Assembly: GCA_951406725.2 (NCBI GenBank)
Contig: OX597826.1
Coordinates: 66,154,001 to 66,218,000 of the forward strand
Source of the DNA: Octopus vulgaris
Taxonomy: Eukaryota
Direction of reading: 5' to 3'
Length of the DNA stretch: 64,000 nt
The position numbers were made by a program, and so were the translations under genes. Under the pieces are notes generated by a model. It searched no databases, was not told where the DNA came from, and saw only the letters and a program-made list of their open reading frames with translations. Positions 10,241 through 63,620 of this stretch are shown in pieces. Position 1 is the first letter of the stretch. The number at the start of each line of letters is the position of its first letter.

Positions 10241-10862
10241 ACTGAGACTCTAGACTACAACCTGCATAAATTTCAAAGTTTTTGCGCTATATGATCACAA
10301 TAAACCCTACATAGGGGTGAGGGGGGGTCAAGAAAGATAGAAAACAGAAACTTCCGGTTCTGGTGGAAGGGTGGGAGGGAGGGCGGGGTCACCTCCAAGA
10401 AACAACAGGTTTTAAGTTAATACGTAGGGAATTTTCTGCGACAGAAATTACTGAACATCTAGAAACTTCGGGGTTCGATTAAAACATAATATAAATAGGA
10501 GAGAGAGGGAGAATATTGTAGTGAATTCTGGGGATGGAATAACAACGGGATGACACTGAAATTAAAGGAGGAATTTAAAATGCATGACAGACAGGAAGCC
10601 ATGCATACAAGATGGCGAAATAAATAATAGAGAAACGGGATTTAGAGTTACGAATCAACGCTTAAAAAAATGAATATGAATGACAGGTTGTAAGTTAAAT
10701 TCGCTTAGCTGGTCATTTTTCGAGTCAGTGTTTTGTCAGCAAGATGTAGAATCGAGAAGAGGGACGAGATAACACTGCTTTATAAAGAGTTAGGGATTGG
10801 GGGGGGGGATTATCAGGTGGAAGCATGAGGAAAGAGAGAGGGGGAAGGAAGAGAGAGAGCTA

Positions 10863-21320: not shown

Positions 21321-22246
21321 CGACCCAAACTTCCGAAAGACAATGGAACTATATTTCATAAAGAAGCTCTCACCAAAATTAAACGGTTGATTTGGAAATA
21401 TGTGGATAAGGAAAATTCAAGGAACGCAGATCATATTTATAGTTTTTTAAAAAGAAGTTCAGATCACCTTCCCACACTTAAACTTTTTTCAGGTTGTATT
21501 TAAAATCATACCTATACTTTAAAATCACTCTTTCAAAAACATAGCCATATGTTTTAAAAATAAAAAACTTGACCACATCCATACAACCATTCTCCACACC
21601 CTTACATTAGTGAATACAAAAGAATTTAAAAAAACAAGACCTTGAAATGTGATTATTATTCTTACTGGAGAAGATCAAAAACAACATCTGGTCTTCCTAT
21701 TAAAAACCTCGACCACTTGAATAAATAAAATTCCTTCCCTTCCCCACCCAAAAGGTTACTAAAAAGGAAAAAAAAAACAACATATTGAGTCAAGCAAGAT
21801 TGATCACACTGACACACAAAAACCACACCTCCTTTACCTCCCCACCCTCCCAAACGTTTTTCTTCTTTCTTTTCCTTTCCTTTGCAAACCCCAAAACATT
21901 CCTACTTTCTCTATTTTCATTATCTCTCACTCTCTACTCTTCTCTTACCCCTGCTCCTTCCCTTCTATTTTGTTCCTCTCTTTCCCCTTACCTCACTCTT
22001 CCCCATTTCTCCCCCTCTCTAAAACATTATCAGTTTCAATTTTATAAACATAAAAACGGCAAAGCAAACTTACTGTAAACCAATTTTTTGATAAATTCGA
22101 TAACGGAAGAAAGCGCTTACAAATGTATAAATACTTTATCATTCTCAATATGCAATATCTGTGCATCACTTCAAAACCTCTCTAAATATATATGCATACA
22201 CACACACACAAGCATATTTATAAACCTCTATATGAGTATATAACCA

Positions 22247-22388
<142 letters not shown>

Positions 22389-22389
22389 T

Positions 22390-23265
22390 GGCCTGCAAAA
22401 AACATAACATACAAAAAACACAAGAAGAAAACAGCTGTTCATGCAGGAATAAAGAATTGTGCCCGCTAAATGGAGCTTGCATGTCCAAGACCATCATATA
22501 TGAAGCTACCGTAAACTCTATAACCACTAAAGACACCGTTTCGACGAAGAAATACGTGGGCCTTACAGAGGGTAATTTCAAGGCCAGGTTCAATAACAAC
22601 ACTTTGAGCTTTAGGCACTGGAACAAAAGAAAAGCGACACAATTATCCAATCATATTTGGTCTTTAAGAGATAAAGGTGTCGATTATAACATACAATGGA
22701 AGATTTTGGCCAGATGTAAGCCCTATACTAACGGCAGCGGAAGGTGCGGTTTATGCGACATGGAGAGATGGCTTATCTGGAAAAGCAGCTTAGACCCTAC
22801 CACATGTCTAAATACAAGGACAGAGCTTTTCGGATCATGCCCACATGTGACTAAATTTCTGTTACGTTTTTGGTCCCCTAAGGAAAACGGATAGAACATG
22901 CTTTCTGTGTTATGTCCCAAGAAGAATTTATATATTTTTATATTTTTATATAATTTTATATATATATATTTTTATGTATTTTTATATAATTTTTATGACG
23001 AAAAATGCGAGCGATGTATAAGTACGCAGGCAAAGCAGAGTTATAACAGAGTAATTTCCCTTCATTTTTAACGGTATTTTTTCATAACGTTTTCAAATAG
23101 CCAGATAACCGAAGAGATGGTGTTGTGGATTTCCACTTCGGCATCTGAAACTCAGAGTTTTATCTTGACTACCGAGTAATGTAACATATTGTATAGATAA
23201 ATTTCCTCTATTTACATAATATTGAGGTCTCTTTCTTTCTTTTGTTATCTTACCGTTTTATCAAT
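22390..23265 (+). mobile_element. 5'-truncated Penelope-like element: intact GIY-YIG 3' ORF (to 22894) plus pseudo-LTR
   Basis: CSCRNKELCPLNGAC...IIYEATV...YVGLTEGNFKARF...CGLC..E...LNTRTE..CPH; flanked by TA/TG microsatellites. Confidence 0.9.
23103..23165 (+). ncRNA. Minimal type I hammerhead-like ribozyme in the PLE pseudo-LTR
   Basis: Stem I AGATAA/TTATCT, core CCGAAGA (U4->C variant), stem II GATG/CATC, GAAA, stem III ACT-cag-AGT, cleavage triplet GUU. Confidence 0.55.
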
Positions 23266-42020: not shown

Positions 42021-42767
42021 GAAAAAAACAAAAAAAAGCTTCTGTCTCTCTTTTGTGTGTCTGTTTCATTAGGCTGTAAGGACATCATTGCCAGCTTCTT
42101 TACAATAGTTTGATAATTTTAGGGTGGATGTTATTGTTGTTTAGCCCCAGGTCAAAACCTGACCCAACACCTCTTTGATTGAAAGTGTTCCAGCTATGTT
42201 ATTATTGTCTTCTCCACCCACCCCCAAGACTACTGTATCCTGGTTTTTAGAATAGAAGCATTGTATTCCTGTGTATTGTAAGACATAACCAAAAGGGTCT
42301 CTCTCTCTCTCCTGTACTTTCCTTCTTGTTGCCACAACAGCTAATCTAAACAATATTCTTTTCTATTCTAGGCGCAAGGCCTGAAATTTTGGGGGGAGGG
42401 GGCCAGTCAATTAGATTGACCCTAGTACGCAACTGGTACTTAATTTATTGACCCTGAAAGGATGAAAGGCAAAGTTGACCTTGGCAGAATTTGAACTCAA
42501 AACGTAAAGACAGATAAAATGCCGCTAAGCATTTCACCCAGAGTGCTAACATTTCTGCCAGCCGGCCACCTTACTAATCTAAACAATATCGTTAGCCTGG
42601 TGTACTAACAGAGAGCTTATAAATTATTTTGCCTGGATTAATAATGACTCTGTTTTATGTATATAGATAGACAGACAGGCATATAGAATCAGACAGATAG
42701 CTAAGAAAGATTGAGTTGTTTATACTGTTACATAATTCTGTAATCACGTTATTTTTCTCTCTTTCAG

Positions 42768-43597
42768 CATTGTCAGTAGGAACAGACAATTTCATCTTGT
42801 GTCCTATGAGTGCACTATCTTGGGATACAAGAAAACTTCGCATCCTTGAAGGTATTCTAAACAACAATCCAGATGTTATCTGTTTAGAAGAAGTCGATCA
42901 CTACGACTATTTATCCTCACATTTGACATCTGTTGGGTATTCTGGTATTTTTCAGCCTAAACCAGATTCTCCTTGTCTGTATTTAAGCAACTCTATGGGA
43001 CCTGATGGTTGTGCCTTATTTTACCGAAAAGATTACTTAAAACTGTTGGATTTCCAGAAAATTGGTCTTAAAAGGAAAGATGGGCAGCTGATGAACCAAG
43101 TAGCCATTCACTGCTTGTTGAAGATTATTTCTGGTGCTGAAGAAGGCAAAGACAAATTCTCTGTAATTGTCACTCATCTGAAAGCAAAAGAAGGCTTTGA
43201 GAAACTACGTTATGAAGAGGGTAATTTCATCTTAGAGTATATCCATGAGAACGTCAAATCATGGCCAGTTATTGTCTGTGGAGACTTCAATGCAGATCCC
43301 ATGGAGGAAGTCTACAAATCTTTCTCAAAGAGTGATCTTAAACTGTTTAGTGCCTACACAAAATTGTCAGACGAAGGCAGTGAACCATCATACACAACGT
43401 GGAAAGTGCGTGATTCTCCAACAGGACCAGTAGAAATTTGTCGGACAATTGACTACATATGGTGCAGTCAGAAGTCTTTAGAAATTCTTTCATTGCTCGA
43501 TCTCCCCAAAGACGAAGATGTTGGACAAAACCGTCTGCCTTCACATTCCTACCCATCTGATCATCTTTCTTTAGTTTGTGACTTCCAATTGATCTAA
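42768..43597 (+). CDS. NOCT: Nocturnin (CCR4/EEP family NADP(H) 2'-phosphatase), last coding exon; total 335 aa
   Basis: TTTCAG acceptor; ALS..DNF..CP..AL.W..RK, PDVICLEEVDHY, KPDSPCLY, GPDGCALFY, VTHLKAK, CGDFNADP, EPSYTTWKVR, TIDYIW, RLPSHSYPSDHLSLVCDF. Confidence 0.95.
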
Positions 43598-45903: not shown

Positions 45904-48121
45904 AATTAGTGTTACCTGTCACATGACAGTTACGGTTGAAGACCTGCTTTTAGCACTGTAGGTGTTATCAGGTATTGGTATATATATATACACATACATA
46001 CTGTGTTGTGTTGTGACCCCCTTCGGTCATGAATGACCATGGGATTGCACCTAGAAAGTTAGCCTTTGAGGCACAAGTCTGGGCAAAGTTGTTTAAAGAA
46101 GACCAGCAGTCGCCCATGCATACCGGCCTCCCCTCTCCACGCCACCGATGTTATCCAAGGGAAAGGCAAAGGCCGATACAGCTTGGCACCAGTGACGTCG
46201 CAGCTCATTTATTAACATGCAAGTGGCTGAGCACTCCACAGACATGTATACCCTTAACATAGTTCTCGGGGAGATTCAGTGTGACACAGAGGGTGACAAG
46301 GCTGGCCCTTTGAAATACAGGTACAACAGAAACAGGAAGAAAGAGTGAGAGAAAGTTGTGGTGAAAGAGTACAGCAGGGTTCACCACCAGCCCATGCCAG
46401 AGCCTCGTAGAGCTTTAGGTGTTTTCGCTCAATAAACAATCACAATGCTCGGTCTGGGAATCGAAACTGCAATCAGGATTTATTATTCTTTGTAAACCTA
46501 GTATTTATTCTATCAGTCTCGTTTACCAAACTGCTACGTTACGGTTATGTAAACAAACCAACATTGGTTGTCAAGTAATGGTGGGTGAGACAAAGACACA
46601 CACACACACATTCATACAACAGGCTTCTTTCAGTTTCCATCTACCAAATCAACTCACAAAGCTTAGGTCAGCCTGAAGTTATAGCAGAAGACACTTGCCC
46701 AAGGTACCACATGGTGGGACTGAACCCAGAAGAGATATATATATGTGGAGCACAATGGCTCAGTGGTTAGGGCAGCGGACTTGCGGTCATAGGATCGCGG
46801 TTTCGATTCTCAGACCAGGTGTTGTGGGTGTTTATTGAGCGAAAACACCTAAAGCTCCACGAGGCTCCAGCAAGGGGTGGTAGCGATCCCTGCTGTACTC
46901 TTTTGCCACAATTTTCTCTCACTCTTTCTTCTGTTGGCCTGCTCGCTTAGCCAGCGGGGTGGCGTCATTTGAAGACTAAAACAATGTAAAGCGCATTGTG
47001 ACCAGCGATGTGTGGCAACATCTGATAGCCTGGTCGGTCACATGATCACGGCGATATATATATATATATATATACAAAAAAGTAACAAATTTTCAAGGTT
47101 TTTTTTTTTCAAATTTTATATGTAAAATATATTTAAACAAAAAAACAAGAACAATAACAATTATACTTTTTCTTCTTCCATCCTTCTTCTCCAATTTCTT
47201 TCAGCAAGTAAAATAAAAGTTTGTTCTGTATATATAAATCTTTCAAGTTAATAGGATCATTGATATCAGCAGAAGTTAAAGTACCACAGACAACAACACA
47301 CCAAAATACAGTCACCTCAGTTGCAGTTCATTTCGGATATATATACCAAAATAATATATTTATATCCTTGAGGTTTAAAAGGGAGGTGGTGGTGGTGGGC
47401 CCTCATTTTTGGCAAGAAATTGGTGTGTGTATGTGTGAGGAGGGGTTGTGTCGTAAGGAATTTCATACAAGAAAAGTTACCCTTTTTTTTTCTTTGCTTT
47501 TCACTGGAAGAATAATTTAAATAAATTTTCGTTTCTTTGGTAAAAGTAGAGAGTTGTGAGAGTGTGTGTGTGGTTTCACACAGACTCTTGGGAGACCAAC
47601 AAAGATCTGAAGAAAGCCCAAATTTGAGTGAAGGGTAAATATTAAGTGTGAGCACATTTGTGTGTGTGTATGTTTGAGCTGCCTTAAGGTTACACATTCA
47701 AGATATCAGTAAAGATATGTGATGAAAGCTTGTTACTCGAGTGAGAGTGAAGTTTAACTGTCTCTCTAAGCTGTGCGATGCTCGCACTTCTTGGGACATC
47801 AATGAGCAAAGAGACACGAGGAAACCCTGACACTTGAGTGAGAGTGAAACCTATCTGTGTTGTTAGCTGTATGATACACACTCTCACTGGGAATGAAAGA
47901 CCTGAGAAAAGTCACATGCTTAAATAAGAGTGAAGCTTAACTATCTGCTTGCACTTACACTCAAAAGATAACAGAGATAACAATTAATATGAGGTAAGCA
48001 TGACATTTGAGTGGGAGTAAACGTCTGCATATATATATATGTTTAATAGTCACACTCTTGGGAAGTTGGTGAGTGTGAGGAGTGGTTTGTGTCCAGAGGT
48101 TTAACAATGATGGTGACAGTC

Positions 48122-48289
48122 TCATGATATATGCGAAGCAGGGGTTGTGGGCGATGGTGACATCTGGGGAAAGGACGAAGTTACACTGGGGTTCTGGTGG
48201 ATAAGTTCTCTGTGGCAGGAATAGCTGTGAGGGCTGATTTGAATTGGAATATGGTGTATCAGTGTTGGGTCCATCACTTGGAACACAAG
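48122..48289 (-). CDS. Chimeric gene, exon 5 (LVFQVMDPTLIHHIPIQISPHSYSCHREL...stop)
   Basis: TTTACAG acceptor. Aligns to VVF.I.D..HYHVPLLLSPYSYSTYRGS, but YRGS is replaced and ~26 aa are added. TGA at 48122. Confidence 0.85.
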   Translation of the reverse strand, partial: LVFQVMDPTLIHHIPIQISPHSYSCHRELIHQNPSVTSSFPQMSPSPTTPASHIS

Positions 48290-49213
48290 CTGTAAAGTAA
48301 AGAAAAACAATTGATTTATTAATTAATAAACAACAATTAATTATGGCAAAACATTTTCTTTAGCCTGATATAAAATCAACTAACAAGATCTATAGTTAAA
48401 GAAGGGTCTCAAGACAAATATAAATGTTGAGGGCTTATTATCAAACCCTAGGTCTGCCTGGATTGAGCTGAACTATAGTTAGAGTCTACGTTACTCCTTA
48501 GGGGCTCATAGGGCCAGTTTTCTGATTTCCCAGGTGTATGTATTCCTTCCTGGAAGGGGATGCCAGTCTGTCATAGGATTACTCATTCTTACCAGCTGAG
48601 TGGACTGGTGCGATGTGAAATGAAGTGTCTTGCTCAAGAACACAATGGATCACCCAGTCTAGGAATTGAAACAACAATCTTACGATCATGAGTCCCAAAC
48701 CCTAACCACTGGGCTATGTGCCCTATGAGCTGAACTATGATAAACAACAATCCAGCCATGTACATCCAATCTTTTATTCAGGTATAGTGTATGCCTATGA
48801 CTACAACAACCAGTATGTCCTCTGTTTAAGATAGTAGTGTGTGCCTTGAGAGAGATTTGGCTATTATTTCTAGCAGGTCTTGCTATCACTTACAAGTTTC
48901 TTGCATTGGCTGGTAATGTTGGGTGGTAGGCCTGACACATTACTCAATTTAACACCTCCACTAAGACTTGCATGACTAGCAGGAAGGATTGAAGGTAAAA
49001 TTAGAATTTGAACTTAAATGTTAGATCAGTGGTTCTTAACCGAAGTCCACTCAACCCTTAGGGATCCATATGGCCTTTGTGGATCCATATAAGATTTTGT
49101 TGTTAAGGTTTATGTGCAATAAATTAATTAAACTTCTACAATACAGAAAACAATTTTTATACAATTCTTAACAAAAATATTATCAGGAATTATAATTCTA
49201 AAAATATATTCTT

Positions 49214-49551
49214 CTGTCTGAGGAGAGTCATTCTCTTTTAGTGCCTTATTCTATAACACGCTCATTGGTTTGATTTCCACTCATTTATTTATTTATTCTT
49301 AAAATTTCTGTTGCATCTTGCATCTTTTCAATAGTCGTTGACTCTGTCCATTATCCAAGCTGCGTTCTTTTTGTTTGTTTGTGCGCATATGTGTGGGTGT
49401 GTGTGTGTGTATGTGTGAATCAATGACTACTGAAAAGGTTGCAAGACGCAATGGAAATTTTAGGAAAAATAAATAAGTAAATGAATGGAAATTGAACTCG
49501 TGAGTGTATTAAATAACAAGGCACTAAAAAAGAATGACTCTCCCCCAGACA
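49214..49551. mobile_element. Palindromic MITE (~130-bp arms)
   Basis: 49214-49345 is inverted at 49417-49551. Confidence 0.7.
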
Positions 49552-50735
49552 CAATAAAATATGCTTCAACACACAAATTCACATCAAGAATCTTGCAAAC
49601 CAAATCCCAAAACGATCTAAAAATATAATTATAAAAGATGATGGTAATATTACTACAATTCTAAAAATATAATTATAAATCATCATCATCATCATCATCA
49701 TTTAGTGTCCGTTTTCCATGCTAGCATGGGTTGGACGGTTCAACTGGGGTCTGTGAAGCCGGAAGGCTGCATCAGGCCCAGTCAGATCTGGCAGTGTTTC
49801 TACGGCTGGATGCCCTTCCTAACGCCAACCACTCCGTGAGTGTAGTGGGTGCTTTTTACGTGCCACCCGCACAGGTGCCAGACGGAGCTGGCAAACGGCC
49901 ACGAACGGATGGTGCTTAATATATAATATAATTCTAAAAAAATGGTGCTTGGTGACAGGAAGAGCATTCGACTGCAGAAAATCTGCATCAACAAATTCTG
50001 TCCAAGAAGTGGACGATAAAGCAGTGATGATGATGATGATTTCTGACACTACACCATTGTATTGTAATGTTTAATATACTCTGTTTCACTACTTATGGTT
50101 CATCATATGCATGCACACATGGACATCTATGCCCAAAGAATGGAGACCCTAAGGCAGCGAGCTGGCAGAAACGTTAGCACGCCGGGTGAAATGATTAGCG
50201 GTATTTCGTCTGCGTTACGTTGTGAGTTCGAATTCCGCCGAGGTTGACTTTGCCTTTCATCCTTTCGGGGTCGATAAATTAAGTACCGGTTACGCACTGG
50301 GGTCGATGTAATCGACTTAATACCTATGTCTGTCCTTGTTTGTCCCCTCAGTGTTTAGCTCCTTGTGAGTAATAAAGAAATAAGTATTTCATCTGTCTTT
50401 ATGTTCTGAGTTCAAATTCTGCCAAGGTCGACTTTGCCTTTCATCCTTTTCATCATCATCATCATCATCGTTTAGCGTCCGTTTTCCATGCTAGCATGGG
50501 TTGGACGGTTCTACTGGGGTCTGAGAAGCCAGAAGGCTTCATCAGGCCCAGTCAAATCTGGCAGTGTTTCTACGGCTGGATGCCCTTCCTAACGCCAACC
50601 ACTCCGTGGGTTGATAAATTAAGTAGCAGTTATGCACTGGGGTCATTGTAATCGACTTAATCCCTTTGTCCTTGTTTGTCCCCTCTATGTTTAGCCCCTT
50701 GTGGGCAATAAAGAAATAAGAATGGAGACCCTTAC

Positions 50736-50871
50736 CTCAATGTAGGGATAAAAAGCTGACTGGTCTGTGATTTTGAAATAAGACTCTGTATCAAACAGTA
50801 GCTTATACACTGTTGTCTTAACGATTTTTTGTCCAGCAAGGAATGCAACATGACCATCAATGCTACTGGCA
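50736..50871 (-). CDS. Chimeric gene, exon 4 (SASSIDGHV...YKLLFDTESYF...FYPYIE)
   Basis: TTACAG acceptor, 136 nt, GTAAGG donor (phase 0). HIUase YKL.FDT..YF....FYPY.E motif. Confidence 0.88.
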
Positions 50872-52389
50872 CTGTAATTAAAGAAATACAAACATGTCAA
50901 AAAACAACAAGAACAATCACTACCACACTGATCCTTCCTTCTAAAACATGATAAGCCATGTGGTTCCTCAACAAGAAATCTGTTCTGCTTTGGCCCTCTT
51001 CTTTCATACTTCAATCCAGCACTGGATTAACCTTTAAGCAAAATAATCATGTGCTTAGGGAATCAAGGAAAGGAGGGCACCACAGAAATGGTTAATGGTT
51101 TATGGCACAAAAGAAATCACTTTAACCCTTTTGTTACTGTATTTATTTTGAGCTGCTTTGTGTTTCTTTCAATTACTTTAAATATAACAAAGAATTCAGT
51201 AAAATAACTTAGTTGTCATTAAACTAGTGTTAGGAACATAAATTGTGACTAAGGTTTGGTGGAAGATTTTCATTCAAAACTTATAAAAACAAGACATTTG
51301 TACTCAGAGCCAGAGCCGGTTTCAGCCGGGTTGGTAACAAAAACTTGCTAAAATAATATTCCAAGTGGTTTATATGATTGGAAATATAATTTTGAAGTGT
51401 TCATGGTGTCATAGTGAGGATCCGATCAAAGACTTTACAATTAAAAGAAAATTAGAAAACTTGTTAAATATATATAAAGTGGAAGAATACAAAAACGTTA
51501 TATTCAATCTGTTAGTTTTCATTTTGAAAAATAAAAATATATTTTATGGTTTATTATTGTTTATATTCTGAATTACATATATATGGTGGGCACCAAAATC
51601 TTTTAACTGCTCAGGATCTCTGTGGATCTTGATCTGACCCACCTTGAAACACTCCTTTCCTAGTATAAAGCCACCTCTCTTGGGGACCATAGTATTGGAA
51701 GCTGCCTTGTGACCCCTCTAGTGCTTGTGGTATGAAAAACACACCTAATACACACCAAAATGGCTGGTGTTAGGAAGGGGATCCAGGCATAGAAACCATG
51801 CCATAGTAGAAAGTGTAACACACGCAGTTCTTGGACCCATCAGATTCTGTCAGTGTCCAACCCATGCCAGCATAGAACAAGGACGTTAAAAGATTATGAT
51901 GATGATGTAACTTATTGATTTTAAGTGATATTTAAGGAGAGTCTTGTTAGTGAGGGAACAGAGTAGAGATAGAGTTGACAGAAACAACTTGTGTTGTATA
52001 ACAGCCATGTGTTTTTTCTTTTATTCAGGCCCCAACTTCATCTTTTTACCTTCTTCACAGAATGAAGGGTAAAGTAGGAAAAAGTTGAAGTGAGGAAGCA
52101 TAGTCTAAACTATCCCCTTGTAGTTTAGACTATGAGCATCATAATCATCATCATATTATCTTAACCATTGCTATATTTTTTTGCCTATTCTTCATACTTG
52201 TGGATTAAGATGGTTGGCATCTCTTACTGACACAAGTACAATGTCTTCTTTGTGAAAGAGAACAATTTTTTTTTAACCACATCAATTCTGAGCAATTAGG
52301 GAAGAACATGAGGTGATGTTTAGTGTTTATCTATCAGTTTATTTGACTTAATTCAATTCAAAAGCACAGTCTAGACATGTATGGACTAG

Positions 52390-52550
52390 CAAAGACCAGT
52401 TCAGACTAAGCCAGACAAATATGAACCAGTCCAGACTAATCTAAACTGGTATGAATCAGTCCAAACTAAACTAAACCAGAATGGACCAGTCCAAACTAAA
52501 CTAGTTTTGAGTAGATCAAACCAGTATGAACCAGTCAAAACTCAAACTAA
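52390..52550. repeat. Degenerate ~30-bp minisatellite (ACCAGTCCAAACTAAA)
   Basis: About 5 units visible. Confidence 0.7.
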
Positions 52551-52653
52551 ACAAAACAATGAGTATTTTTTTTTTACTTAGAATGTTCAACTCTTTTTTT
52601 GTTTTGTTTTTTTTTTTCAGAAACTGCACTTTAGTGTTAAACAAGTTTCTTAC

Positions 52654-52775
52654 CTTTTCTGAAGCAGTTTCCAAGATCGCTTCTCAATCTGAATAAATAA
52701 TAAGACAGGTACACCAGTTGCAGGCAGACCTTTGGAAATATCAAATACATGGCTAGAAATTGGTGAAGTTATTTC
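52654..52775 (-). CDS. Chimeric gene, exon 3: transthyretin/HIU-hydrolase domain start (EITSPISSHVFDISKGLPATGVPV)
   Basis: TTTTGCAG acceptor (phase 0), 122 nt, GTAAGA donor (phase 2). Matches HIUase SP.STHVLD.S.G.PA.G. Confidence 0.85.
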
Positions 52776-55772
52776 CTGCAAAATAATGTTGTTATGTAAA
52801 GGAATTAATGAGAATTGTAATGGGAGAAAAAAAGAAAGGGAGATATATGAAGAACTGAGAGGGAAATGAACAAAAAGAGAGAGAGAGAGAAAAGGGGAGG
52901 AGGAAAGGATGGAGAGAGAGCAGAAAAACAAAGAGAGGGGTGAAAATTGAAGTCTAAAAGATAGAAAAAGAGAATTAAAAATGAAAGAAATGTCATTTAT
53001 ATTTCTTTTACATCCATTTTCCCCAATCTTTTTATCCAATCTGAATTGGTTACAACGGGTATTTTTATAACCATTCTTTGCTGGGATAATTGGATACGAC
53101 AACCTAAAACACATTCGACCATGAAATAGCAGTGGAGCCTGTTTAGGTTTGGTTTGCTATCAAGGTGAAACAGAGTTATCTACCTTGCTCAGGGATATAA
53201 CACAAGCTGTCGTACAGTTTCATATACCTATTTCTTTACTACCCACAAGGGACTAAACACAGAAGGGACAAACAAGGACAGACAAACGGATCAAGTCGAT
53301 TATATCGACCACAGTGCGTAACTGGTACTTAATTTATCGACCCCGAAAGGATGAAAGGCAAAGTCGACCTCGGCGGAATTTGAACTCAGAACGTAGTGGC
53401 AGACGACATACTGCTAAGTATTTCGCCCGGCGTGCTAACGTTTCTACCAGCTCCATCGTCATCGCATCAATATCATAATCATATCCACTTTTCCACGCTT
53501 GCGTGAGCTGGAAGGAATTTGGTGAGGCAGATGCCATTCCTGTTGCCAGCTTCCACTTGTTTCCAAGCAAGATTAAATTTCCCCATGGCCAGACATATTT
53601 TCACAGAAGACTAGACACGAAATAACAGTGACACGAAATAACAGTACAGTTATTGCGCAATGTCAAAACAAGGAAACACACACACACACACGCATACATA
53701 CGACAGGCTTCTTTCAGTTTCCATCTACCAATCCAGTCACAATATATCAACATCGTTTTCACGTCCACTCTTTCATGCTTGCATGGATCGGACAAAATAT
53801 TGTCAAGGTAGATTTCTATGACCAGATTCCCTTCTTGTTACCAATCCTCATCCGTTTCCAAGTAAGATAATATTTCCTCAAGTCCGCGGAGCACAATCAG
53901 CACGAGTGCCAGACATGATTTCATTAAAGGTTACAAAGGAATTACACTACTTGTATCGATATTATGAGAATAATTTCCTCTCTTCTATCCATTTGTTCAC
54001 CCCCTAAATTATCTCTAGGCCTGAATATTTGCAACAAAGTAGATTATATGAATGGCACCCAAGGACCAAGAAGTGGTGTTAAACCAGGGGTTACAGACAG
54101 GAGCGGGCATAACTGTTTACCAGGCTCCTTTGAATGTGTTAACATATAGAGTGCAGGCCCCTCAGACAGTGTCCGATTGACCGACTGCTCAGTCCAGCCC
54201 TGGTTTCAGATGAAATTTACCAGCCGAGAACAAGGAATGTTTCTTATCACAGGCTTCCACAGTTTTTGTCCAGTAAATTTCAACCATGGGGTCTTGCTTT
54301 ACCTATAGTTATTGTAGAAGACAATTACTTACAGTGCCATACAGTGAGATTGAACCTGAAACCATATAGTTCCAAGGCAAACTTCTCAACCACACCTACT
54401 GCCATTACCTCTATTTATCCCCCACTGTTTCCCACCACCCCTGTACCTCTCACTTAATCCCTGGCAATGTGCATCTCTCTTGCATTCTACCTCTGCACAT
54501 TTTGTATCATCTGTACTGCCACTTTTTACCCTCGCCTCCAACTGATATTTGACAGAGCACACCTCTGCCTGTGTTCACTACTCACAACATTCCTCTCTAT
54601 CCCCATTTCTAACCATCTGCCATTCTCCTTTCACACTCACACAAACCTACTTAACTACCCATTCACCCTGTCCAATCCTCTGAATCACTCCTCTTACATT
54701 CGCTCTTCCAGTAACTTCTTTTTCCCAACTAAGGCAACCATGTATCTCCCCTACACCAAGACACCTGATCCTGTCTTTCTATTGTACTTTAACTTCTCAT
54801 CACCTGGCATAAAACCACCTGTTTCAATACAACACCTCCCTCATTTGAAAGGCGGTGTCTTGCAAGTTCCTTAGTGACCTTACTGGTGCCAATGTCACGT
54901 AAAAAGCCTCTACAACTCTCTGTAAAGTGGTTGATTTTAGGAAGGGCATCCAGCCATAGAAACCATGCCGAAGCAGACACTGGAACTTGGCACAGTCCTC
55001 TGGCTCACCAGCTCCTGTCGAACTGTCCAACGTATGCAAGCATAAAAAAGTTATGTGCTGTGGAAGGATTCTGATCCCCCACCCCCAAATAACTAAAAGG
55101 TGGACTGACTCATTGTTATAAAACAAAGAACTGTGTGCAATTAGCAGTTGGTGTTGGTAGCAGTTCATAGTGAGCCTCTGATATAGAGTGTTGAGTCTTG
55201 TGTAATAGTAAGAGTAGTGTGGTGTCTAAATACTTTCTCCCCCCTGCTTCATAAAAAGCACCATTTGAGCGTGGTCATTGCCACTGCCATCAGAGTGGTC
55301 CTGTACTGGTGACACAAAAAAGGCACTATTTGAGCGTGGTTGATGCCAGTGCTGTCTAACTGGCCCCATGCCAGTAGCATGTAAAAAGCACCATTTGAGC
55401 GTGGTTGATGCCAGTGCCACCTGACTGGCCTTGTGCTGGTGGCACATGAAAAAGCATTTACTATACTCTTGGAGTGGTTGGTGTTAGGAAGGGCATCAAA
55501 CTGTAGAAACCTTACCAGATCACATTGGAGCTTGGTGCAGCCTCCTGGCTTGCCAGTCCTCAGTCAAAACGACCAACCCATGCCAGCATGGAATGCGGAC
55601 ATTAAACAATGATGATGATGATGAAAACAAGGATATAAAACTATGTTAAATGGTAATGATGACGACGATGATGATAGTAATGACAACCAGGCCTATCACA
55701 GATCTGCTGATATTAAAAGACCAAAGAAAAGCAAACCGGAAGAGAACCAGAAGCACAAAAATGTTAATATAC

Positions 55773-56214
55773 CATATCTCGTGTCCCTCGTTTCTTTTTC
55801 TTTGTGTGGCCATCATTACAGTTGATGATGTTGTTGTTGTTATTATTGATATTGTTATTATTATTATGAATGTTGTTGTTGTTGTGGTTAACCATGTTGC
55901 TGGTGTTGTGATTAAGTGGAGGGCTGAGTTCTTTTTTGCGTTTGGCTTTCAAGTTGTTAATGTCCCTCGTTGTTAGCTGTTTGCCAGTCACATTGCATAT
56001 ATACTCTCGGATGTTCTTGGTCTTCATTCCAATGTCTATTAGCCGGTATGTCTCCGTGAGGACGTTGGGCGACAGAGACTGCCTGCGGTTCTCAGGGTAC
56101 ATGTGACCCAGCATCTGATGCGAGTGGTTTAAATTGATGGATCGTATCACCATTCTCTGCTTCTCTCGGTCAACTGATGCAGCAATTAGAGCAGGACATC
56201 CAGTTTTATATGTT
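55773..56214 (-). CDS. Chimeric gene, exon 2 (KTYKTGCPA...NLNHSH zinc ligands, helical segment, poly-N, KKKKR)
   Basis: TTTCAG acceptor; AA+A=Lys restores RPNQKTYKTGCPA; 442 nt ending ATG|GTATAT (phase 0). The unspliced alternative stops at 55764. Confidence 0.8.
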
Positions 56215-58083
56215 CTGAAATTCAAAAGGGAAAACAGGTTATTGTTGTTGTGGTTGTTGTTGTTGTGGTGGTGGTGGTGGTGGTGGTGGTGGTGGTGCTG
56301 CTGCTGCTGATGATGATGATTATTATGATTATTATTATTATTATTATTATTAAGGCAGTGAGTTGGCAGAGTTGTTATCATGCTGGACGAAAAGCTCAGT
56401 GGTATTTCACCCATAGCCACATTCCGGGTTCAAATTCTGCTGAGGCTGATATTGCCTTTCATCCTACATGATAAATTAAGTACCAGTGAAACACTGGGGT
56501 CAATGTAATCAACTTGTCCCCTCCCCAAAAATTTCAGGCCTTGTGCCTTTAGCAGAAAGGATTATTAATATTATTATTATTATTATTCAGTAGTCTTTGT
56601 GATTATTGTAAATGAGTATTTCCAATATTCTCTGAAAACCGTCTGGCCATGGGGAAATATTACTTTATTTTGGAAGTAGGTCGGAGTTGACAAGAAGAAG
56701 GGGTATCTAACTATATAAAAATCAATAAACTCTGTTCGACCCATACAAGCAGAGAAAAGAAGGTGTTAAAACGATGACGATTCATATTACACTTGCATGG
56801 AGTGGAGTGTGATGCAGTGGTTGAGAGAGGAAATCTCTTTTATGGTTTATTGTCTGAACTACTTTCGTAACTTGAGAAGCTTTCACTACGATTGTAGCAG
56901 TTGAGAGAGTGAGTTGAATATGGTTCATATGCTGAGGTGGCGTTTTCTTAACAGTATAACACAAACTCCAGATTGGAGACATGCAGTAACAATTAAGGTC
57001 GGGTGGAAACTTCATATATGATAATTGGTTACAGATTTTGGCTCAAGTCCAGCAGTTTCGGGGAGGAGGCTAAGTTGGTTACATCGACTCTAGTACGCAA
57101 CTGGTATTTATTTTATCGACCTCGAAAGGATGAAAGGCAATGTCGACCTCGACGGAATTTTAACTCAGAATGTCCAGGCGGACGAAATGCTGCTAAGCAT
57201 TTTGTCCGACGTGTTGACGATTCCGCCAGCTCGCCGCCTTGTTTACATATGATAATAAAGATCCTTTTTTTTTTTTTTTAAACATTAAGCACAAACTGAA
57301 GACAAGTGTGGTAACAGACCAGGTTTAGTGAAACGAGAGTTCATATAATTAGTGGCCTTTCCTAACATAAAACCCAGGCTAAATAAACATTAGGCGAGGT
57401 AACTGATCTGGACGAAAATGAATGAAAGATTATCAAATATGCCGATCTTTCCAAACATTAACACTAGAATGAAGAGAATGGTGATAACGCAATGTGAAAC
57501 AAATCAAGCCAGAATCAACATACCTAGGATCAAACACATCTAGAACCATTCTGTCGCTCACATTATTTAGACATAGTGTGTACAGGACTACGTTATCGTA
57601 CTTGTCCTTTTTTTAAAAATAATTCCATTTTGCCAATGTTTGCATTTACTATTTGATAACACAGATAACAAATTAGTTTCTTTCAATTTACTGTTTCACT
57701 TCTATATGTATGGTAGCTATCTGTTTACATACCTGCGTATCTATGTACTAATCATAAATAATATCCACCAGCCTTTCCACACATACATATAGCAACATGT
57801 CAAAATGATAATAAATGTATCTGCCTGTCTACATAACTATAGATTACAGATACACACACAACAACAACAACACATAACTATCTACAACATTTGAAAGGCA
57901 TTCGTAGAAAATTTCATCAAAACAAATATCCATTTTTTCAGAAAATTATTAGAAAACAGTGTTGGGTGTGAAGAACACACGTCTGTAATCACATACACAC
58001 ACAGTATTGACAATAAAACCTTATATCGACACTCATTCATCGTTTTAAGGATAAAGTCAACAACGAGTGATTAACGACAGGTA

Positions 58084-58158
<75 letters not shown>

Positions 58159-58590
58159 CAGAGAGACAACAGACAGAAATAGATTGATCGAGAAGAAGAA
58201 AACACCACATGAGATATCTCCCACTAAAAAGAAAAAAAAATCGTGTGTGTTGCAACTACATGGTTCCAGGTTCGATCCCACTGCAGGGTATTTTAGGCAA
58301 GTGTATTCTGTCTGATATAGCCTTGGGTTCACCAACACCATCGAATGAAATTTGCTAAACGGAAACAGCGTCGGAACCCATCGGAGGAACCGATCTTGTT
58401 TTGTATGGAAGTGTGTGTGTGTGTTTATGTTTATGTTTACGCTAGTCTAAAACCGGTGTTGCTTATGTTGTGTCGCTTTATGTTCCGTAACTTAGCAATT
58501 CAACAATAGGGATTGATAGACGAAGTACGGAGGTCGATATGATAATTGAAACCAGTAAAAGAAAAGAATATAAAGAAATGGAGGAAATAC

Positions 58591-59195
58591 TTTTGGTTGG
58601 GTCGTATCCCAGGCACAGTCCGTCGTCTCGAGTAACCAAACTGTTTACAAACATATTTGACGTATTTGTATTTGAACTTCTCGTCTAAAGGTTCAACTTT
58701 GACACATCGGGATCGGTTAGCTTTGGCAATTGTTTGACAGTCATGGATGGTGAACACAGCATTTGTCAGCTTACAGACAGCTGCTATAGCAGAAGACAGG
58801 GCAGAAAAGTCTTCGAACTCGTCCCCAGCATTGAGTAAATCTCGACAGGCTTCGTTTGCCCCAATCTCAATCAGGGCTTTGCTCACAAGTAAATCCTCGC
58901 TGATTTTGTCCGAGCTCTGCTCGTGTTGATGTTGTGGTTGATGGTGGTATTGCTGTTGTTGATGATGATGTTGGTATTGTTGCTGATGCTGCTGCTGTTG
59001 TTGTTGTTGCTCTTGTTCGAGTGTGGTTGTAGTCAGGACAGTGGCCGCCAGAACGTCAGCGGCCGAGGTGGATGACAGTTGCTGTTGTGGTATGACCACC
59101 AGTTCGGTGACTGCTGTTGGAGTTGCAGTCGACTGTTCGGTGGTGAGAAGGCTTACACTCTCAGCCACTACATCTTGCTCACCTGTCGTTGCCAT
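58591..59195 (-). CDS. Chimeric zinc-finger/transthyretin-like gene, exon 1 (T/Q/H-rich N-terminus + first half of a ZSWIM3-N/FAR1-like domain)
   Basis: AAAGATGG start; GDEFEDF..L..AI...KYKYVKYVCKQFG...GIRPNQ; 605 nt; GTATTT donor, phase 2. Confidence 0.85.
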
Positions 59196-59348
59196 CTTTG
59201 CTTGGCCAGGGTCCAGGAAGAGCCCTGGTCAAGGTAATGCTTCCACTGAAGGTGCAAATAAGTGGCCTGGCTGTGAAACTGCTCCAATGATCAACCGGTG
59301 TGGAACAGGGATGAAGAGTTCCTCTTAAAGACATTAGAGAGAGAAAAC

Positions 59349-59400
59349 AAGAGTTATCCCACGTTTACTTCCGGTCCGTTTACAGCGCAACGTAACCGGG
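59349..59400 (-). promoter_or_regulatory. Putative promoter of the chimeric gene (GGGATAACT motif, ETS CCGGAAGT)
   Basis: AGTTATCCC at 59352-59360 and ACTTCCGG at 59367-59374, ~160-180 nt upstream of the ATG. Confidence 0.45.
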
Positions 59401-60719
59401 TCATTTCATCCTCGTTGTTTATTTTCTCCTTTTCTTCGTAAATTATTTTATTATTTGCTTGCAAGTTTTTGTAAATTACTTTTCTTTTTGCTTCTAAATT
59501 GATTTGTTTAAGAATTTTGTTTGTAAATTTTATTTAATCAGTGTGTGTGTGTGTATTATGTTTATAGATGTTGGTTCGAATCGCACGGACGGCCTTCAAT
59601 TTTTTTCTATCCAAAAGGACTTTTGACGCAATATATTTAGACTATTATTTATAGTTTTATGTGATTTGATAGCCACCATTCCCAATGATAATTAAAATAA
59701 ATTACTCATGTAATTAACTAATTAATTCTACTTAACTTGTTTGAAATTAATAAAATTAATTAATCGAAATCAGCATTAAAATTTTTTTTTTAATCAATAA
59801 ATCGAATTCATATCTGTAGGGAGAAAATACCTACGGTGTATAAGTGTATATGAATTTATATTTACGCAAAAGGCTTACCTAGGCTAATAACTTGAATAAC
59901 AAGATGTGTGTGTCGTACTTATTCATGTACTGGTGAAGACTGCTTGGCTGACGAAATCTAAAAAAGACTGAAACACGTCTAGAGTTGTCGCCTTTCTGCT
60001 CAAATCCCCATTTCGTTGCCCATATTCTATACTAGCTGAAATAACTGGAGTTACCTGAGTTAATGACTTACGGAATTAACAGTAACATCACAAAGCTCTT
60101 TATTTAACTTATCTTTTCGAGAAAAAAAAAACACTCGGCGAAAATTTGGACTAAAAACACTTTGTACACCTTTTTCTTTTCCTTTTAAGAATATATTTTT
60201 GTTTCATATATAAATTCCAAATATTTGTTTGTTCAATTCTGTAAAAATTTGTCCTCAAATTCAAATCTTTTGAATCCCTTTTCAGTTTCTGCTTAAACGT
60301 GATCCTTACCCTAACTCAAAATTGTAATCCTATGTGCTCACACGAAACCCTAACATTGAATGCTAACCTTCAGCGGAACGAGAATGAGTGTGATGTGAAA
60401 GATGTGTGTGTGTGTGGAGAGAGGGAGAGAGAGAGAGATGAGAAAAAGAATGAGTTTGGCTTAATCACAATTAAAGTTGTAGGATTAAGTTACCGAACGA
60501 TGGGAAGAAACCTTAATTCTGAACAGCCACAGCACGACAAGAAGGACAAGGAACCAGACAAGTTTTAAGTGGGTATGGAATGACGAGAAGGAGGTTGAAT
60601 TCCTACCCATTACTATATTCATCAATCTCATGAGTCAATCACAACCCAGGAATTGAACTCCCATCCACTTCTATATCCACCATTTAACCAACACTTATAT
60701 CCACTCACTTATCTGTATA

Positions 60720-63620
60720 GCAATTGGAAGTGAAAATTAAGACTCTTAAACCTAACTTTCCTACTGTTTTGTTGCAGGAGCAATACGCTACATGCACTTC
60801 GAATAATATGGACAGTTTTATGGTACAAAGTTTTTGTAGCGCTCCGGCGTTTTTTCACCGTTCTGCCTGATCTTGTGATTCTTTTGGAGGTTGGCGTGGA
60901 GCACTTCTCATGCGTCTGGCCATTATTTTGTGCTTCTGCATTGTTATCAGGAGGAGCATTTGTGATTTCTTTCCTTGAGTCAAGTTGAGTAACATGTTCC
61001 ATGGAGTTTGTAGGGTCTGTTGGATGGTTGTCTGGCAGGAATTTCCATCTAAGTGGTCTGTTTATACTATCTGTCTGTGCCTATGCTAGTATCTCTCAGT
61101 TCCCTTTTGTTTATCCGCAAATCTCCATGTGTTGTTTTCACAATGTAAGACCTCGGTTCTTTACATTGTCTTGCTTTTTCTCCAGGTATTCAACGTTTGT
61201 TGCTTTTTGTCCAAGGACCCGTACAGCTTGTCCTTTGTGCAACGGGGGTATTTCTATCTTTGCGTACTAATCATATGTAGTTTTCATTTCTTCAAGACGT
61301 TTTCTCTGTCTTTGAGTTACATGAGAATAGCTCCAGCATAATGGCACAAGTGTTGTGATCGGTCTGCTCAACAGGATCTCGACGGGTGGCGGCATCTTTG
61401 GGTTTAATGGTGTGGCTCTTAGATTCAAAAATGCATTGTTTATGTCTTCTTTGCTTTGTTCACATTTTTGGATTGTCTTTTTAATTGCCTGTACCTGTCT
61501 CTCTATGAATTCGTTTGATTGGGGTATCTTGATTATGTTGAATTCCCCATTTCTGTGTGAATTGCCGATATGGTTTTCCAGTATATTGAGGACCATTGTC
61601 GCTAAAAATGTCATCATGTCTGACGAAGAGAGAGACAGTCTTTTTGAATTCCTTTGCGACTGCTTTGCTTGTGGTCTGGCTGAGGTGAGTCACAATCGGA
61701 AATTTGGAGAAGTAGTCACAAATAAGCAGATAAGTTTCGCCGTTGATTTCAAATAGATCTGTTCCTAGTCTTTTCCATGGTGTTCTGGGAATGTCATGAG
61801 GTATCAGTGGCTCTCTGTTGTTGGTAGTTGCAAATTCTTGGCATATTTGACAGGATCTGCACATTTCTTCGATGTCTTTGTTGATGTTTGTCCACGAGCG
61901 TGAAGTTTGGTCTTATCTATCCCTTGATGAAAGGCATGGAGATGTACTAGAATGTCATGCTGTAGAGGTATCAACACTTGTGTCCCTTTGAAGATGATTC
62001 CATCTTCTACAGCCAATTCGTCTCAAAATGACCAGTATGTCTTTATACCATCTGGGACTTGTTTGATGTTGTCTGGCCACCCATAGGTGATCGTTTCCAT
62101 CAGTGTAGCCAAAGTAGAATCTCTGCTGGCGAACTCCTGCAGTTGGTAACCTTTGTTGATGGAAAAATCGGTAGATTTCTCCTGCAGTCAATTCAATCCC
62201 ATCCATTCTCCTCAAGCCCAGATCAATGCCTTCATTGTCTTCACGGCTTGGGAGGCGAGAGAGGGTGTCGGCCAATGTCATGTTATGCCCTGGGCGGTAT
62301 TTGATTTTGAAATCATATCCCTGAATTTTCTGGAGCATCCTTCGTAGTCGGGGTGGTGCTCGAAGAAGGGGCTTTTCTGCGATCACCTCCAGGGGTTTGT
62401 GGTCTGTGATGACGTCAAATAGTTGTTTGCAAAGGGATGTGTGGAAACGGGGTGATACCAAATACCACAGCCAGCATTTCATGATCGATGTTTGAGTAGT
62501 TTGACTACTGAGTTTTGTCAAGGGCTTCTGATGCAAATGCCACAGGTTTGCCATCTTCTACGATAGCTGCTCCGTGTCCTTTCAAAGAGCTGTCTACCTC
62601 GAGTCTTATTGGTTTTTATTTTTTTTTTAGTAAAAAAACCCGAGGTTTAATTTCTCTAGAATGGTTCATTTAAGTTTTCCAAAGCAGTGTATGTGATCTT
62701 TAGACATCTCAAATAGTATATTTTTCTTGAGGCGGTCCCTTAATGATTGTGCTTCCATGCTGAAGTTTGGAATGAATGTTGCTAGGTAATTCATTATTCC
62801 CAAGAATGTTTGCAGCTCTTCCTTGTTTTCTGGAACAGGCATGTTTTGAATGTCACAGACTTTTACTGGGTCTGGCCTGGTACCATCTTTGGAATAAATA
62901 TTTCCAAAGAAAGAGATTTCGGGTTGATGAATGTGGCATTTGTCCTAGCTTGAATACCAATCCAGATTCCTTTGCTTTTTCCATGAGTCTTTGTAAATTT
63001 CTGTCATGCTCTTCTTCATCTTGCCATGGACAGCGATGTCATCATTTATTGCAACAACCCCTGGGAGTTCTTCAATGATTTCATCCATTCTAGCTCGAAA
63101 GATATTGTGGAGATACATTTAGACCAAATGACAATTTAGTCCAACAATATCTTCCAAATGGGGTCCTGAAGCTTGTGAGTAGCTGACTTTCTTCATCCAG
63201 ATGAACAGATCGCTGAAAGTGCTAGAACCAGCAAACTGAGGGTTCAAGCTCTTCCACCGTTGGGATTTTGTGGGGGGGCATCTTTTCAATGCTTGATTAA
63301 GTTTTTGTGGGTCGATGCAGATGCGAAGTGATCTATCTTTGTTTTACGGAATATGCCATGCTTGAACACCAATCTGTATATTGTTTCACAGGCTTGATGA
63401 CACCCCTATTTCTTCCATCTTCTGGAGTTCAATCTTGGGCTTATGTTTCAGGTGAACTGAGCATTTCCGAGGTGGTTCAAAGAAGGGTTCCAAACATGCT
63501 TTTATGTATAATTATGCGGGTTCTTTGAAGCTGCCCAGGATGTCGAAAAGATTTCGGTACGTTTCTTTCAAGCCTTCGATTGTTCTGAAATCAGAGTTGA
63601 ATCCGTGACATGATCACAAT
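60720..63620 (-). mobile_element. Decayed Ty3/gypsy pol (RT, RNase H, integrase)
   Basis: Frameshifted motifs: TSFRTPFGRYC, VITDHKPL..APPRL.RML, YRPG..M.LADTLSR, H..HQGI.KT, C..CQ, PWKRLGTDLF, DYFSKFP, SDNGPQY, ERQVQ.IK, RATPL, TRSGR. LTRs not identified. Confidence 0.9.

Follow-up and report, generated by a model that had tools for sequence, protein, structure and literature searches.

An octopus gene that joins a Mutator-type DNA-binding region to a remodelled HIUase/transthyretin domain

Introduction

What becomes of a metabolic enzyme gene when the DNA-binding part of a transposase is spliced in front of it? This question is raised by a locus of Octopus vulgaris lying in a stretch of 64,000 nucleotides (contig OX597826.1, positions 66,154,001 to 66,218,000; hereafter the window). 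On the minus strand, between positions 48122 and 59195, a sequence-only reading had proposed a chimeric gene in which a zinc-finger domain from transposases of Mutator-like elements (MULEs) precedes a non-catalytic transthyretin (TTR)/5-hydroxyisourate hydrolase (HIUase, URAH) domain. Here we report that the fusion is one transcribed, spliced gene, and that its second half is probably an inactive HIUase relative, which may serve as the hub of a DNA-binding protein.

Results

Structure and splicing of the fusion gene

Five minus-strand exons with AG/GT ends and cumulative phases of 2, 0, 2, 0 were found. Translation of the joined exons gave a coding sequence of 1473 nt, that is, 490 amino acids and a stop, and the gene model proposed earlier was thereby confirmed. 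In the Pfam search, exon 1 matched ZSWIM3_N (E 1e-6, above the cut-off), and exons 3, 4, and 5 matched positions 1-34, 41-82, and 84-108 of Transthyretin (PF00576), in this order. The features of the gene are as follows (window coordinates).

59196..59301, minus strand: 5' untranslated region (UTR); contig starts scatter from 59273 to 59301, and the start site is not fixable from contigs
58591..59195, minus strand: exon 1 (605 nt, phase 2); a Q/H-rich, poorly conserved tail, then the start of the ZSWIM3_N/WRKY-GCM1 finger from 58838
58649, minus strand: zinc ligand C183 in exon 1
55773..56214, minus strand: exon 2 (442 nt, phase 0); remaining finger, helical bundle, poly-N linker, and basic patch
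56118..56214, minus strand: second half of the zinc finger, with C208 (56198), H232 (56126), and H234 (56120)
55926..56117, minus strand: predicted three-helix bundle, helix-turn-helix (HTH)/homeodomain-like, amino acids 235-298, likewise of MULE origin
55788..55802, minus strand: KKKKR basic patch, candidate nuclear localisation signal
52654..52775, minus strand: exon 3 (122 nt), where the HIUase/TTR domain begins; His12 (52751) and Ile16 kept, Leu14 changed to Phe
50736..50871, minus strand: exon 4 (136 nt); Asp50 kept, catalytic Arg52 changed to His (50852)
48122..48289, minus strand: coding part of exon 5; His103 and Pro105 kept, Leu107 changed to Gln, YRGS changed to HREL (48214-48203), and a variable tail of ~26 amino acids
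47110..48121, minus strand: 3' UTR; contig ends scatter from 47110 to 47201

Splicing was examined in public Logan contigs from four runs of four studies (X1, X3, X10, and X13), presumed to be RNA. A contig of 2337 nt (X10, record 10) covered exons 1, 2 (55896-56214), 3, and 4, and exon 5 together with 1 kb of UTR. Between its exon 3 piece and 55896 lie 124 unlisted letters, the exact sum of base 52775 and the repeat-rich 55773-55895. One spliced chimeric gene, as had been proposed, is thus borne out by a contig containing all five exons, including the joint from 55773 to 52775. In X13, X3, and X1, the single-record offsets (291, 217, and 359 letters, respectively) agreed with the same splice in length, and in length only. 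The joint list was dominated by repeats; the 15 joints shown from it (527 further ones were unlisted) did not include those between the exons. Exons 1 and 2 were spliced in contigs of X1, X3, and X10, and exon 4 was included in those of X10 and X3. Sister contig records (P0013, P0014, P0017, and P0019) stopped at, or ran into, the same two intron positions.

Furthermore, the depth in the bin 52617-53217, which takes in the sequence just upstream of exon 3, was that expected from exon 3 alone in all four runs (expected 3.65, 2.11, 0.68, and 1.73; seen 3.62, 2.09, 0.67, and 1.71). Neither AATAAA/ATTAAA nor a motif like the type 2 peroxisomal targeting signal (PTS2) was found in intron 2 by motif search, although contigs cannot prove the absence of a separate transcript. 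Both results speak against polyadenylation after read-through of exon 2 and against a separate start of the TTR exons in intron 2, which the sequence-only reading had named as the refuting outcome. We conclude that the fusion is one transcribed, spliced gene.

The N-terminal half

ZSWIM3_N (PF21599) matched the protein at 49.3 bits against a curated cut-off of 27.8, over positions 2-102 of 102 (P0008). The C..C..HxH ligands enclose a basic insert, with RRRT..GIRP, between the cysteines, and C183, C208, H232, and H234 did not vary among 27 aligned relatives. A MULE or RNase-H-like domain was present in 11 of the 19 N-half relatives scanned, which agrees with the Mutator-transposase origin proposed for the finger. 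The similarity to the MULE relatives extended from about amino acid 120 to amino acids 291-299 and ended directly before their catalytic domain. The absence of a DDE or SWIM part was also upheld: 11 MULE queries matched only exons 1 and 2 within the window and 30 kb upstream, and PF10551 and PF21056 were not found in the fusion proteins by Pfam scan. The fusion thus lacks the RNase-H-like DDE domain that follows the DNA-binding region in an active MULE transposase. Judged from these alignments, the N-half is the front ~180 amino acids of a Mutator transposase, consisting of a WRKY-GCM1 finger and a three-helix bundle.

In an early structure model, the finger had low confidence; a model from the 27-row alignment gave 10-residue pLDDT means of 79-97 over amino acids 231-300. 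The linker (amino acids 306-377) had pLDDT below 50 and was predicted to be disordered. The top fold match of the model of amino acids 118-237 was yeast Aft2 (Z 6.5, rmsd 2.9, 76 residues), and Foldseek likewise placed Aft2 first (E 0.006), with WRKY domains next. Aft2 is itself a MULE-derived transcription factor (PMC1702500), and the fold scores are modest yet consistent with the Pfam assignment. Amino acids 237-304 were modelled as a three-helix bundle resembling HTH, homeodomain, and Myb folds (Z 5-7.7; a common arrangement). With finger and HTH-like bundle both present, the DNA-binding region is predicted to be bipartite; the finger described by the sequence-only reading stands, and the second module had been missed. 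A search of the ESM Atlas gave no usable match for the whole protein. A nucleoplasmin match and weak matches from a PDB sequence search (alignment A6) were rejected as an artefact of one alignment member.

In the octopus genome, the ZSWIM3_N search gave three matches above the cut-off among 18 candidates, which is a lower bound. The two other loci were C3:148979327-148979641 (L005) and C3:128926219-128926416 (L006), the former being an open frame of 186 amino acids with a full finger, which may be another domesticated gene. The ZSWIM3_N-like part of a further protein (P0030) stops at the same ..RPNQK point as exon 1; the intron in the finger may therefore stem from the transposon family itself.

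The C-terminal half

PF00576 matched positions 1-108 of 109 at 87.9 bits (P0016). The closest solved relatives by sequence were HIUases (E 3e-19 to zebrafish 2h1x), and the modelled fold agreed with 3iwv (TM 0.89, rmsd 1.6). The HIUase active site comprises ten residues, H12, D50, R52, H103, P105, L107, Y116, R117, G118, and S119 (PMC13751858, citing Cendron 2011). In the alignment, His12, Asp50, His103, Pro105, and Arg117 were kept, and the other five were replaced (Arg52His, Leu107Gln, Tyr116His, Gly118Glu, and Ser119Leu). The five replacements were identical in Octopus, Argonauta, and Sepia, and Argonauta added Asp50Asn and Pro105Ala. A change of Tyr116 alone costs ~99% of HIUase activity (PMC13751858). 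Active HIUases have YRGS at the free C-terminus; here HREL was found, followed by ~26 further residues. Because half of the active-site residues are replaced and the C-terminus is extended, the C-half is probably enzymatically inactive, and the non-catalytic transthyretin fold proposed earlier is supported as probable.

The thyroxine (T4) cavity of transthyretin also requires the change of Ile16 to Ala, which opens it (PMC13751858). With Ile16 kept here and Phe in place of Leu14, the domain is not expected to have a cavity of T4 size and the C-half is probably not a thyroxine binder, which weakens the earlier suggestion of a hormone-like ligand. The domain differs from vertebrate transthyretin also in having His as residue 116 and in being preceded by a basic patch, not a signal peptide.

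When four copies of the O. bimaculoides domain were modelled together, the score was 0.91 (best of three controls, 0.12), with a contact agreement of at least 94% and pLDDT of at least 86. The mark used was reached by 21 of 30 solved pairs and by none of 23 single chains; for eukaryotes, the corresponding values were 17/29 pairs (animals 7/16) and 0/30. In this model, His116 contacts Phe14, Ile16, and Gln107 of another subunit across the channel, and the histidines gained point to a possible metal or proton site. In an HIUase tree, the coleoid stem was long (2.11) and the tips were short; with 121 columns and 64 rows this tree is weak and places the coleoids beside long branches.

Distribution among cephalopods

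Annotated proteins with the full fusion exist in O. bimaculoides (XP_014779890.1), Argonauta hians, and Sepia pharaonis, and two Logan contigs (1860 and 2264 nt) carry it as an unbroken open reading frame. When the Sepia-type protein (P0016) was compared, identity was high in the finger (103/115), the following helices (56/64), and the TTR domain (95/111), and weak in the linker (12/54) and in the tails (35/119 and 8/27). The basic patch has counterparts in Sepia (KKKKK) and Argonauta (KHKR). The TTR domain of O. bimaculoides was identical to that of the window at all 111 positions. Among seven coding differences listed from the contig alignments (147 rows more), five were silent and two lay in the variable tail.

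Octopods and cuttlefish separated a few hundred million years ago. Because the fusion occurs in both, the gene is at least as old as their split. No fusion was seen in Nautilus, gastropods, or bivalves: both domains occurred together in nine of 309 collected proteins, eight from coleoids and one from Capitella, described below. The word searches behind this molluscan distribution were weak (5 matches among 74 candidates; 6 among 7999 scored), so the negative result in non-coleoid molluscs does not date the gene. Among molluscs, the fusion has so far been seen only in coleoids.

HIUase and its pathway in the octopus genome

The captured gene had been supposed to be a duplicate HIUase gene. Two genome searches matched only the fusion locus: PF00576 gave one match among eight candidates, and both candidates for a canonical HIUase query belonged to the fusion gene. 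As no second copy was found, the captured gene was probably not a spare duplicate. Exon-by-exon genome searches gave no match for uricase or OHCU decarboxylase, and a whole-genome search gave no candidate for either of two Pfam domains of xanthine dehydrogenase/aldehyde oxidase. As the positive control, AIRC was matched at two exons (E 2e-10 and 9e-8). A separate uricase query (P0271) also had no match and is uninformative, since it missed the HIUase locus as well. With exon-by-exon searches and a single working control, the absence of these pathway genes is likely, not shown. It weakens the urate sensing suggested by the sequence-only reading, at least for the octopus, which may make no urate; no paper on an octopus without urate synthesis was found in the literature searched. 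Loss of the whole urate pathway was ruled out by a remaining divergent allantoicase-like gene at C14 ~41059300-41064200, with at least three open exon-like pieces (L004, L015, and L016). These results are most simply read as the capture of the HIUase gene itself, which then outlasted its pathway.

HIUase fusions in other lineages

A search over 1.84 billion representatives gave 1818 matches, of which 150 were listed. The best non-cephalopod match among those listed was Capitella teleta ELU04385.1, with ZSWIM3_N and a TTR domain that has lost His12, Arg52, and YRGS; it is a single gene model, here without transcript support. The Capitella and coleoid halves were not best matches of each other: the N-half scored 65 bits against 102 bits for a Hydra protein, and the TTR half ranked 148 of 162. 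The two stood apart in the tree, and the approximately unbiased (AU) test gave p 0.226; these data neither establish nor reject a single origin.

A search for long HIUase proteins gave 537 matches. Among the best 120, which were listed, 58 carried an N-terminal transposon-type module according to our own profiles. Four module types were found, namely an insect C2H2 finger (25), a Brinker DNA-binding domain (19), a fungal BED-like finger (9), and DUF3504/QRICH1 (5), and no protein matched two module profiles. One copepod sequence was included in profile A3, which raises the share of copepods among the 120. RefSeq records and short contigs support the insect form, which was seen in cockroaches, stick insects, thrips, beetles, and Hymenoptera; the nearest Atlas clusters of its finger were zf-C2H2_12 and zf-BED (0.90), which is a lead only. 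The Brinker form came from Calanus and Neocalanus transcriptomes. The fungal finger, in rust-group fungi, matched zf-BED below threshold (E 0.09-0.25) in five of the eight proteins scanned. Domains of the BED and Brinker types are characteristic of hAT and pogo-like transposases. The DUF3504 form occurred in Nematostella, Actinia, Actinostola, Acropora, and Montipora, and DUF3504 derives from Crypton transposons (PMC3212892).

In the weak HIUase tree, the coleoid, anthozoan, copepod, and rust-fungal domains each formed one group, and the insect domains not quite. The terminal YRGS was retained in 22/28 Brinker, 5/5 Crypton, 9/9 fungal, and 17/39 insect fusions collected, and 20 insect fusions had changed or extended tails. 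From these sequences, the fusions look graded, with an intact enzyme at one end and a dead scaffold, the coleoid protein, at the other. Five or more non-homologous captures are indicated: by MULE (coleoids and Capitella), BED-like C2H2 (insects), Brinker HTH (copepods), Crypton DUF3504 (anemones and corals), and BED-like (Pucciniomycotina) domains. We regard it as highly probable that HIUase capture by transposon-derived nuclear domains recurs across lineages. The recurrence of fusions between DNA-binding domains and HIUase in other lineages had been missed by the sequence-only reading.

HIUase exons were also modelled behind cadherin and other genes in many records. Upstream exons are therefore easily accepted, and single records may be artefacts; the cadherin-HIUase proteins and a lone HTH_psq-HIUase record (P0074) were excluded from the counts. 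Cadherin-HIUase proteins were seen in frogs, axolotl, coelacanth, and some mammals (P0073, P0106, P0214, P0244, P0245, and others), in one case on a contig of 1567 nt, and are either surface or secreted fusions or read-through models. The single records P0022, P0032, and P0074 joined ZSWIM3_N to nucleoplasmin, also an oligomeric scaffold (paddlefish), KRAB to ZSWIM3_N, and HTH_psq to HIUase.

Neighbouring features in the window

The sequence CCGGAAGT, which we take to be an ETS-type promoter motif, lies at 59367-59374 (minus strand), ~70-100 bases upstream of the 5' ends of the fusion-gene contigs. Tail to tail with the fusion gene is a large exon with an Exo_endo_phos domain (42701-43597, plus strand), presumably nocturnin-like by its motifs; contigs cover this gene from 42766 to ~44250, and it is a useful synteny marker. 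Broken pol pieces of a long terminal repeat (LTR) retrotransposon lie at ~60700-63100 (minus strand). The O. vulgaris model CAI9732080.1 joins them to exon 1 (rve match) and is probably a prediction chimera. An open frame of 1040 amino acids at 7127-10249 (minus strand) has what we take to be the look of a long interspersed element (LINE) endonuclease and reverse transcriptase, and another at 22244-22894 (plus strand) presumably ends in a GIY-YIG-like stretch of the Penelope type.

Discussion

In this study, a metabolic-enzyme fold was found behind the DNA-binding part of a transposase in one spliced gene. We consider it reasonably probable that this domesticated transposase fusion is a nuclear, tetramer-scaffolded regulator that binds DNA sequence-specifically, as predicted from its domains.

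URAH and TTR genes have a short first exon followed by a phase-0 intron, so an upstream exon can splice in frame onto the domain. The two genes indeed share their exon structure (PMC13751858). In the order of events that we infer, a MULE upstream of an HIUase gene would have donated the first 180 residues, its front end being joined through the phase-0 intron to the catalytic HIUase exons in place of the short first exon. The HIUase half would then have lost its catalytic residues, diverged rapidly, and frozen. The homotetramer hub would carry four DNA-binding arms on flexible, disordered linkers, the basic patch would serve nuclear import, and the multivalent protein would bind or bridge repeated sites, for example old MULE ends.

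Several points weigh against this reading. The Aft2 fold match is modest, lying below the tool's distinctive level of 8. The tetramer mark was reached by only one of seven eukaryotic pairs without an older solved relative, and it was calibrated with two copies, not four. Because solved TTR/HIUase tetramers exist, passing it indicates likeness, possibly memory, and not proof; the tetramerisation suggested earlier is thus favoured by the model with this reservation. Furthermore, the channel residues His52, Gln107, His116, and Glu118 are invariant in three genera, beyond what a plain scaffold would seem to require. Finally, the models CAI9732080.1 and CAI9732081.1 skip exon 4 and end by frameshift inside the TTR domain, leaving a truncated TTR half, which could reflect either an annotation error or a genuine short isoform that lacks the tetramer hub.

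The invariant channel might be explained by a one-component sensor, in which a small ligand bound in the remodelled channel would switch DNA binding. This role would add to the scaffold and is compatible with it, and we hold it possible though rather doubtful. A pocket with His12, His52, His103, His116, Gln107, and Glu118 would be less suited to urate or thyroxine than to a metal (Zn/Cu), protons, or a small polar purine base. The substitutions, identical in Octopus, Argonauta, and Sepia, bring two extra histidines to each subunit, and the contacts of His116 with another subunit fit such a site, as does the zinc-bound structure of the E. coli homologue (2g2n, by title). The YRGS retained in copepod, anthozoan, and fungal fusions points the same way. 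In addition, this scaffold has already passed from enzyme to ligand carrier in transthyretin (PMC13751858), and fungal fusions of WRKY-GCM1 to isochorismatase have been proposed to act as sensors (PMC1702500). However, the long disordered linker offers no clear allosteric path, the enzymes making and degrading urate were not found in the genome searches, and Ile16 and Phe14 leave no room expected for T4.

Control of transposons, or a chromatin adaptor, is an unlikely alternative to the scaffolded regulator: the protein would coat MULE ends, compete with the transposase, or recruit partners through the TTR surface. Exactly the part of a MULE that recognises DNA is kept and the catalytic part is gone, and binding to the cognate transposons has been reported for KRAB-transposase fusions (Cosby et al., bioRxiv 10.1101/2020.05.07.082677). 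However, the three ZSWIM3_N matches (a lower bound) suggest that cognate elements are few, and an identity of ~90% between octopus and cuttlefish points to a stable host role more than to an arms race.

It is very unlikely that the C-half is still an enzyme, acting on HIU or another hydrolase substrate and either targeted to chromatin or merely tolerating the extension. Although His12, Asp50, His103, Pro105, and Arg117 are kept in what is the sole HIUase homologue found in the genome, and an allantoicase-like gene remains, the other five active-site residues are replaced, the C-terminus is extended, and uricase, the maker of the substrate, was not found in the genome. The view that two neighbouring genes were joined by rare read-through or by gene prediction is largely refuted: HIUase exons are often modelled behind unrelated genes such as cadherin, one O. 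vulgaris model (P0007) adds retrotransposon pieces to the fusion gene, and the contigs come from runs presumed to be RNA, but the spliced contig, the matching offsets in four studies, the depth at exon 3, the lack of polyadenylation and PTS2-like motifs in intron 2, and the same fusion in four species leave it barely credible.

The gene has the in-frame spliced transcript joining both domains that characterises host-transposase fusions. With the KRABINER/SETMAR type (Cosby et al.) it shares a transposase DNA-binding part spliced to a host domain, and recurrent independent origins. In the available text of that work, the host domains are mostly chromatin regulators (KRAB, SET, and SCAN) of tetrapods, whereas the fusions here have a C-terminal purine-catabolic enzyme fold and occur in invertebrates and fungi. 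Mutator, URAH, and transthyretin are absent from its main text; its list of 55 host domains may bear on novelty. With Aft1/Aft2 (Rcs1p), Candida Rbf1p, and plant FAR1, as covered in the accessible part of PMC1702500, the protein shares the insert-containing WRKY-GCM1 finger, C..C..HxH, and an N-terminal helical extension. It differs from these MULE-derived factors in that the finger is followed by a helical bundle and the transthyretin fold. The closest architecture in that text is the fungal isochorismatase fusion, and transthyretin does not occur in it.

With URAH and transthyretin, the C-half shares the PF00576 fold and the modelled tetramer, HIUase being its closest relative. Like transthyretin, it has replaced Tyr116 after leaving the pathway. 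YRGS and Arg52, present in URAH, are missing from it. The retained Ile16, a domain without a signal peptide, and the attached DNA-binding modules set it apart from transthyretin. The allantoin synthases (Urad-Urah) of plants, diatoms, and bacteria also place N-terminal domains on an HIUase C-terminal tetramer core, but there the partner is the next pathway enzyme and both halves are active (PMC13751858). The passages of this source on Urad-Urah fusions do not mention cephalopods, and the available part of PMC10120013 contains nothing on them. No description of this gene, or of fusions between DNA-binding domains and HIUase, was found in the literature covered, subscription papers lying outside that coverage, which agrees with the earlier statement that no protein of this architecture had been described.

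The recurrent fusions raise the tentative possibility that eukaryotes have a class of one-component regulators, so far undescribed, whose DNA binding is gated by a tetrameric purine-binding pocket. If this were true, metabolites of the urate pathway would be sensed or turned over on chromatin in lineages with intact YRGS, and the coleoid protein would mark the final stage: the last HIUase gene, retained when the urate pathway had gone, with its histidine-lined pocket retuned to another ligand. A second route from enzyme to ligand binder would then stand beside transthyretin.

Taken together, these findings place a metabolic-enzyme fold among the host domains that have been captured by DNA-binding domains of transposases, with the capture apparently repeated across animals and fungi. 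The fusion proteins are already in public databases under automatic names, and the result points to untapped candidate transcription factors annotated as 'uncharacterized' or wrongly as uraH. It offers a second natural experiment, beside transthyretin, on how HIUase may change its job. Cephalopod biology gains a highly conserved candidate regulator and the suggestion that the octopus lost urate production and degradation, and the recurrence hints at an overlooked way of building gene regulators.

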